From NCBI RefSeq assembly GCF_003334255.1, contig NZ_QOWU01000012.1: DNA of 64,000 nucleotides. One strand, given 5' to 3'. Positions 42,379 through 42,404 of this stretch are shown here, in pieces; position 1 is the stretch's first letter, and each line of letters opens with the position of its first letter. This stretch comes from Escherichia coli. GTDB lineage: Bacteria; Pseudomonadota; Gammaproteobacteria; Enterobacterales; Enterobacteriaceae. The notes under the pieces were generated by a model. That model had not been told where the DNA came from and ran no database searches. It saw only the letters and a program-made list of their open reading frames with translations. Made by a program: the position numbers and the translations under genes.

Positions 42379-42404
<26 letters not shown>

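Follow-up and report, generated by a model that had tools for sequence, protein, structure and literature searches.

Background

Stop-shift overlaps are those in which genes on opposite strands come to share a short 3' stretch through movement of a stop codon (the model of Fukuda, Rogozin, Johnson and Chisholm; Huvet and Stumpf 2014), and in E. coli there are 663 overlapping adjacent pairs, of which 75 are convergent (Huvet and Stumpf 2014, PMC4161906). The overlap of ycjG and mpaA that we are discussing resembles these, being a short 3' stretch shared by opposite-strand genes that appears to have arisen by a moved stop, and located where one of the two proteins has a C-terminal tail of low conservation. 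It differs in that the event can be traced to a single base (TGAG to TAG, which regenerates the stop codon of one gene and frameshifts the partner), and in that the junction has five overlap lengths among genera.

Convergent excludons, as described for mogR/fli of Listeria and for the E. coli excludome, also consist of opposite-strand neighbours with overlapping transcript 3' ends and RNase III products. However reciprocal expression is the outcome by which an excludon is defined, whereas ycjG and mpaA encode co-regulated enzymes that act sequentially. The overlap of transcripts also differs in origin, being due to long UTRs or regulated read-through in the described cases and forced by the overlapping coding sequences at ycjG/mpaA. 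The overlap as such is already known: all standard annotations of E. coli include it, and the pair has been catalogued as a convergent excludon.

Rho suppresses antisense read-through (Peters et al. 2012; Adams et al. 2021), and in the same way untranslated ycjG RNA is terminated within the convergent gene after a C-rich stretch. We see no difference in this respect, the ycjG region being one among several hundred in the published table. Bidirectional intrinsic terminators (Ju et al. 2019) likewise end transcription at tightly packed convergent pairs, but they have a GC-rich hairpin with A- and U-tracts, and ycjG/mpaA has only a 6-bp palindrome with no U-tracts.

The ycjG and mpaA genes and their overlap

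The window, by which we mean the whole stretch of 64,000 nucleotides of E. coli DNA that was analysed, is chromosomal and takes in tyrR-tpx-ycjG-mpaA-ycjY-pgrR-mppA. The two genes and their overlap are as follows.

41439..42404, plus strand: ycjG coding sequence, L-Ala-D/L-Glu epimerase, 321 aa (ORF list, RefSeq, PDB 1JPD)
42379..43107, minus strand: mpaA coding sequence, murein tripeptide amidase, 242 aa (ORF list, RefSeq, PDB 5HXD)
42379..42404, both strands: convergent overlap of the coding sequences, 26 bp (sequence; same 26-bp form in 25 of 80 species)

An earlier sequence-only reading had reported that the two 3' ends have these 26 bp in common, and this is exact by sequence, open reading frames and RefSeq, where the coordinates of both coding sequences are identical in a genome that is 100% identical over the stretch. 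The ycjG frame ends in ...CAT CTT TAG, with the TAG stop at 42402-42404, and the mpaA frame, on the minus strand, in ...CCG TCG TGA, with the TGA stop at 42381-42379 (the reverse complement of 42379-42381), each stop codon sitting within the coding sequence of the partner. The count of 26 bp takes in both stop codons, and the part that is sense codons in both genes is 20 bp (42382-42401). The overlap codes for residues 314-321 of YcjG (FTTGELHL) and 235-242 of MpaA (PKDAIRPS), the codons for F314 and P235 being partly inside it.

Both are real protein-coding genes on opposite strands, as seen from open reading frames, RefSeq, PDB and orthologues in 80 species, and both proteins have been experimentally characterised. 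YcjG is a 100% match to residues 1-321 of PDB 1JPD, full length to L321, and MpaA matches PDB 5HXD (E. coli MpaA) over residues 1-237. The overlap is not a start-codon annotation artefact because the stop codons are unambiguous, and with both proteins characterised an annotation artefact is rejected. There is a longer mpaA open reading frame from TTG 43167 (262 aa, the extra part being 43108-43167). It corresponds to b1326 (1387894-1388682) in an earlier annotation of K-12, on which Huang et al. relied; the ATG at 43107 is the start in RefSeq and PDB 5HXD.

The same reading had both enzymes acting on the same murein peptide, which we correct here, as their substrates are consecutive intermediates: MpaA converts the tripeptide to L-Ala-D-Glu and mDAP, and YcjG then epimerises the L-Ala-D-Glu.

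With regard to the flanking genes, strain G6/7, the closest complete genome and the one used for annotation, has an IS1A inside mppA, the gene for the murein tripeptide binding protein. The window departs from G6/7 at about 46933 and its mppA open reading frame (45737-47350) is intact. The gene upstream of mpaA is a pseudogene remnant in the window (43235-43372) and an intact SDR oxidoreductase gene in the O157:H7 strain PV15-279 (L083).

A 96-nt query covering the junction is found in 5,415 of 5,426 complete E. coli genomes, with at least 99% identity in 4,440, and a 2-kb query is present in 5,417 of the 5,426 and 100% identical in several complete genomes. Of the six convergent pairs in the first 50 kb of the window, one overlaps and five are separated by 43-119 bp, and the ycjG/mpaA overlap is not beyond what chance or ordinary evolution can provide.

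Distribution of the junction in Enterobacteriaceae

A scan of the genome collection with MpaA gave 80 Enterobacteriaceae species, and in all 80 ycjG is convergent with mpaA and directly downstream of it. The overlap of coding sequences is inherited, being present in 75 of the 80, and the forms found are listed below.

10 bp overlap, 45 species: Enterobacter, Leclercia, Lelliottia, Kosakonia, Raoultella, Kluyvera, Pseudocitrobacter, Trabulsiella, Yokenella and others
26 bp overlap, 25 species: Escherichia, Citrobacter, Salmonella enterica arizonae and diarizonae
4 bp overlap, 3 species: Lelliottia sp. WAP21, Huaxiibacter chinensis, Pluralibacter gergoviae
33 bp overlap, 1 species: Pluralibacter sp. 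MAG
47 bp overlap, 1 species: Citrobacter youngae ATCC 29220
spacer of 88-331 bp and no overlap, 5 species: L053, L055, L057, L058, L060

The spacer of L053 (3727-3814) is a REP-like palindromic element (GTAGGTCCGGTAAGCGCCAGCGCCACCGGGCA...), and a terminator-like site was looked for in the spacer of L055 and none was found.

The YcjG C-terminus, FTTGxLHL followed by the stop codon, is conserved and fixed in position, and it is the C-terminus of MpaA that is the moving end. In the Citrobacter youngae group both ends have moved: in L014, L015 and L018 (junction at about 3683-3708) a change of CTAAAG to CTTGAG has removed the ycjG stop and created an mpaA stop at once, the two gene ends have each shifted 21 nt, and the overlap remains 26 bp. 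In L022, which is without the new mpaA stop, it is 47 bp. In O157:H7 PV15-279 an insertion of ISEc8 (IS66 family) has left the last 100 or so codons of ycjG (L083, 1258-1560), and mpaA and the 26-bp junction are intact despite this truncation.

A probable one-base deletion and the lengthening of the overlap

The step from the 10-bp to the 26-bp form can be placed at one site in the window.

42402..42405, plus strand: inferred 1-nt deletion site, TGAGG in the 10-bp species and TAGG here (16-species junction alignment, tail translations)

In the junction alignment the Escherichia/Citrobacter/Salmonella lineage has CCT-AAAGATG where other species have CCTCAGAGATGA. Read in the mpaA sense, the 10-bp group has ...TGG CAG CCT CAG AGA TGA and E. 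coli has ...TGG CAT CCT AAA GAT GCA ATT CGC CCG TCG TGA, with one base fewer, and in the ycjG sense the comparison is of CTC TGA GG in the 10-bp group with CTT TAG G in E. coli. The simplest account of these sequences would be loss of the G from the ycjG TGA, with the next base restoring a stop codon as TAG. The 10-bp form occurs across several family-level clades and the 26-bp form is confined to Escherichia, Citrobacter and Salmonella, and we therefore infer that the 10-bp state is ancestral, using parsimony on the established taxonomy rather than a computed tree.

We suggest that mpaA and ycjG had become packed end to end, with no spacer, before the genera of Enterobacteriaceae diverged. 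In the Escherichia/Citrobacter/Salmonella lineage one base would then have been lost in or beside the ycjG stop (TGAG to TAG), leaving YcjG unaltered. The last two codons of mpaA would have been frameshifted past the old TGA, making the translated region 16 nt longer, and MpaA would have gained the short, variable and dispensable tail KDAIRPS in place of QR, giving the overlap of 26 bp. The finding matters little in itself, and the modest gain is a reconstruction of the lengthening of a convergent overlap to the single base.

The C-terminal tail of MpaA

The MpaA tails vary, with KDAIRPS, KDAIRRS, KDGVARS, RDEAVRS and KDGVDPS all being found, and comparison with known structures gives an indication of where the conserved protein ends, as homology to Vibrio MpaA (PDB 4AXV) stops at MpaA residue 235 and the crystallised chain of E. 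coli MpaA (5HXD) stops at residue 237.

It could be argued that residues 236-242 serve a function such as stability, oligomerisation or localisation of the protein, and that selection on both proteins keeps the 26 bp. The 26-bp state is indeed kept across Escherichia, Citrobacter and Salmonella arizonae and diarizonae, and the leading residues, K or R followed by D, are fairly constant. However the sequence after K-D is highly variable, the tail is missing where the overlap is 4 or 10 bp (48 species), residues 238-242 are missing from the crystallised chain, and the MpaA of strains in the Citrobacter youngae group ends in ...WHP. The second codon positions of mpaA also vary as synonymous sites of ycjG do: the entropy of ycjG third positions, which are the mpaA second positions, is 0.96 in the overlap and 1.13 upstream of it (means for 27 sequences). 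We regard a functional tail as very improbable indeed; from these sequence comparisons the extra residues probably have no function, and the junction behaves as a case of drifting stop codons and not as a conserved device.

RNA signals at the junction

Two features of the RNA were considered.

42395..42409, both strands: palindrome GCATCT-TTA-GGATGC across the ycjG stop (fold)
42250..42395, minus strand: mpaA 3' extension, first 130 nt, antisense to the 3' end of ycjG (fold)

The 6-bp palindrome over the ycjG stop is the only local hairpin and is followed by a U-tract on neither strand, and a consensus scan for terminator-like sites found none on the plus strand from 42262 to 43600 or on the minus strand from 42379 to 41405. 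An intrinsic or bidirectional terminator at the junction is thus ruled out.

The mpaA 3' extension (42250-42395) forms a stable fold in E. coli, with a minimum free energy of -56.4 kcal/mol (z = -3.1), but an alignment of 75 orthologous segments has a consensus of only -1.8 kcal/mol with 0 compensatory pairs and no shared structure. A conserved RNA structure was therefore rejected, as there is no covariation and the conservation tracks the codon periodicity of ycjG. A search of 40500-44000 against Rfam gave no match at E <= 1.

Transcripts that cross the overlap

Because the coding sequences overlap and there is no terminator at the junction, a full-length mRNA of either gene is antisense to its partner. 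Published data sets locate two features that bear on the fate of these transcripts.

42717..42820, plus strand: C-rich, G-poor stretch and Rho termination region (peak at about 42794), antisense to mpaA (Adams et al. 2021)
42902-42924 and 42956-42979, both strands: two p19-captured RNase III duplexes of 21-22 bp, within mpaA (Huang et al. 2020, Table S3)

Adams et al. used DirectRNA-seq with and without bicyclomycin (BCM), and list a Rho termination region at U00096.3 position 1390286, plus strand, antisense to mpaA, with a Rho score of 3.94 (p = 7.2e-5) and upstream/downstream coverage of 47/14 without BCM and 58/68 with BCM (Adams et al. 2021, PMC7815308, supplementary file 2). Window positions are obtained from U00096.3 by subtraction of 1347492, an offset that puts the 3' end of tpx on the tpx stop and the mpaA-internal end 39-40 nt into the open reading frame, and that differs from the U00096.2 offset by 1977. 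The Rho site then falls at about 42794, directly after the C-rich, G-poor stretch and 390 nt past the ycjG stop, from which it follows that ycjG transcripts cross the overlap and enter more than half of mpaA rather than ending before the overlap is reached.

In wild-type total RNA the sense/antisense reads (RPM) are 51.2/10.0 for ycjG and 73.9/17.6 for mpaA, antisense being about 20% of sense for both genes, and p19-captured dsRNA is at 25-54 RPM for ycjG and 55-112 for mpaA (Huang et al. 2020, PMC7373196). The duplex sequences in Table S3 of that paper map exactly to the positions given above, showing that sense and antisense RNA pair in vivo within mpaA. On our own reading of the layout of Table S1e (PMC7373196), the columns from Conway et al. 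imply a plus-strand operon end at U00096.2 1388177, which is 42662 in the window. Such an end would fit with diffuse termination by Rho and subsequent trimming; the fold around the inferred end (about 42662) is not significant (z = -1.9). ExcludonFinder (Sanmartin et al. 2025, PMC12288877) counts the ycjG-mpaA pair as one of 165 convergent excludons that recur in at least 50% of 58 MG1655 transcriptomes, and it also has tpx-ycjG among the divergent excludons and mpaA-ycjG-tpx among the noncontiguous operons.

For transcripts in the other direction, the tables of Adams et al. give neither a 3' end nor a Rho region that is antisense to ycjG (PMC7815308). Rho termination of mpaA transcripts inside ycjG is plausible, since their 3' extension is rich in C and poor in G between 120 and 280 nt beyond the mpaA stop.

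Adams et al. 2021 also report an RNA 3' end 39 nt into the mpaA coding sequence, on the minus strand at U00096.3 1390559 (about 43067 in the window), which appears both in their list of all 3' ends and in that of 5'-UTR and ORF-internal ends (PMC7815308). Early termination of transcription, or processing near the mpaA start, may account for it.

The sequence-only reading had proposed that convergent overlapping transcription could couple expression of the two genes through antisense interference. The first part is borne out, as the Rho region, antisense reads, duplexes and excludon list all have the transcripts overlapping; the coupling of expression is at most putative and there are several points against it.

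Does the overlap have a regulatory role?

We think it likely that this is an ordinary tail-to-tail overlap that came about by drift of stop codons, near-neutral in effect and with passive read-through, and not a mechanism that exists for regulation. The present analysis provides the overlap, its distribution among species, the indel and the unconstrained MpaA tail, and the literature provides the read-through, Rho site and duplexes; the ancestral state and the near-neutral effect are what we infer from them. The packing would leave both gene ends without a terminator as a passive consequence. Transcripts of ycjG would run several hundred nt into mpaA until stopped by Rho, those of mpaA would enter ycjG, and some sense/antisense duplex would form and be cut by RNase III. 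With low expression and co-regulation the duplexing is most likely tolerated noise that makes little change to protein output.

There are points against an effect so close to neutral. The terminator-less packing in 75 of 80 species could reflect selection and not inertia, transcripts overlap in at least 50% of the 58 RNA-seq data sets (ExcludonFinder, PMC12288877), RNase III duplexes do form in mpaA (PMC7373196), and excludon pairs as a class are more syntenic than other pairs. A modest regulatory effect of transcription of the partner is conceivable.

The stronger proposal is that the pair is a working convergent excludon, in which polymerase collisions and RNase III cleavage link expression of ycjG and mpaA, either reciprocally or by each damping the other, so that flux through the branch of tripeptide degradation is capped. 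The place of the pair on the MG1655 list of convergent excludons speaks for this, but as the coding sequences overlap the call is automatic once both genes are expressed, and it is silent on effect. The read-through of ycjG for about 390 nt into mpaA before Rho termination, the antisense level of about 20% on both genes with p19-captured duplexes within mpaA, and the lack of a terminator at the junction in 75 of 80 species are all in keeping with an excludon. However the PgrR regulon includes both ycjG and the ycjY-ymjDC-mpaA operon (Shimada 2018 regulon table; PMC9928106), and for sequential enzymes under one regulator co-expression is to be expected, where an excludon would give the opposite. 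Nor is there any rise in sense RNA when RNase III is mutated, the RPM in wild type, rnc-14 and rnc-38 being 51, 39 and 33 for ycjG and 74, 42 and 22 for mpaA, although these are single libraries and carry little weight. Both promoters are weak, and collisions of polymerases should therefore be rare. The length of overlap is not conserved (4, 10, 26, 33 and 47 bp) and five species have a spacer of 88-331 bp instead, and one O157:H7 strain retains an intact mpaA beside a ycjG truncated by ISEc8. On balance an excludon with an effect on expression is unlikely, and regulatory coupling of the two genes by antisense is unproven and somewhat disfavoured. Were the coupling functional, this would be an excludon that joins co-regulated sequential enzymes and not antagonists, which would slightly widen the concept.

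A related suggestion is that the terminator-less junction was selected as a mutual attenuator, such that on relief of repression by PgrR the convergent read-through and RNase III cleavage would cap and balance the output of the two consecutive enzymes. Less murein tripeptide would then be diverted from Mpl-dependent recycling into catabolism. We consider this a good deal less probable again than the excludon, and retain drift of stop codons as the better account of the junction.

Antisense transcription towards tpx

The listing of mpaA-ycjG-tpx as a noncontiguous operon raises one further possibility, that the ycjY-ymjDC-mpaA transcript crosses ycjG in the antisense direction and continues into tpx, with the embedded ycjG being repressed. 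It is one of three noncontiguous operons listed by ExcludonFinder (PMC12288877), but the sole support given is that ycjG has two excludon calls, the convergent one with mpaA and the divergent one with tpx, and no mpaA-tpx co-transcript is reported in that paper. Such a transcript would meet no terminator-like site on the minus strand from the mpaA stop to 41405, the tables of Adams et al. place neither a 3' end nor a Rho region antisense to ycjG where it would be stopped, and there is ycjG antisense RNA at 10 RPM against 51 sense. However the C-rich, G-poor part of the mpaA extension 120-280 nt downstream resembles a Rho loading site, tpx has its own promoter and is expressed about 10-fold above mpaA, and the dsRNA over tpx has been ascribed to plus-strand transcripts of tyrR and ycjG. 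A transcript running from mpaA into tpx is accordingly quite improbable, and we return to passive read-through at the ends of both genes as the preferred reading.

The tpx coding sequence (40814-41320, minus strand) lies under dsRNA cluster S-116 (40820-41344 in the window), which is among the 20 most abundant p19-captured clusters (Huang et al. 2020). The cluster was ascribed to plus-strand transcription of tyrR and/or ycjG antisense to tpx, and was likened to a noncontiguous operon (PMC7373196). The antisense transcription over tpx is much stronger than that at the ycjG/mpaA overlap.
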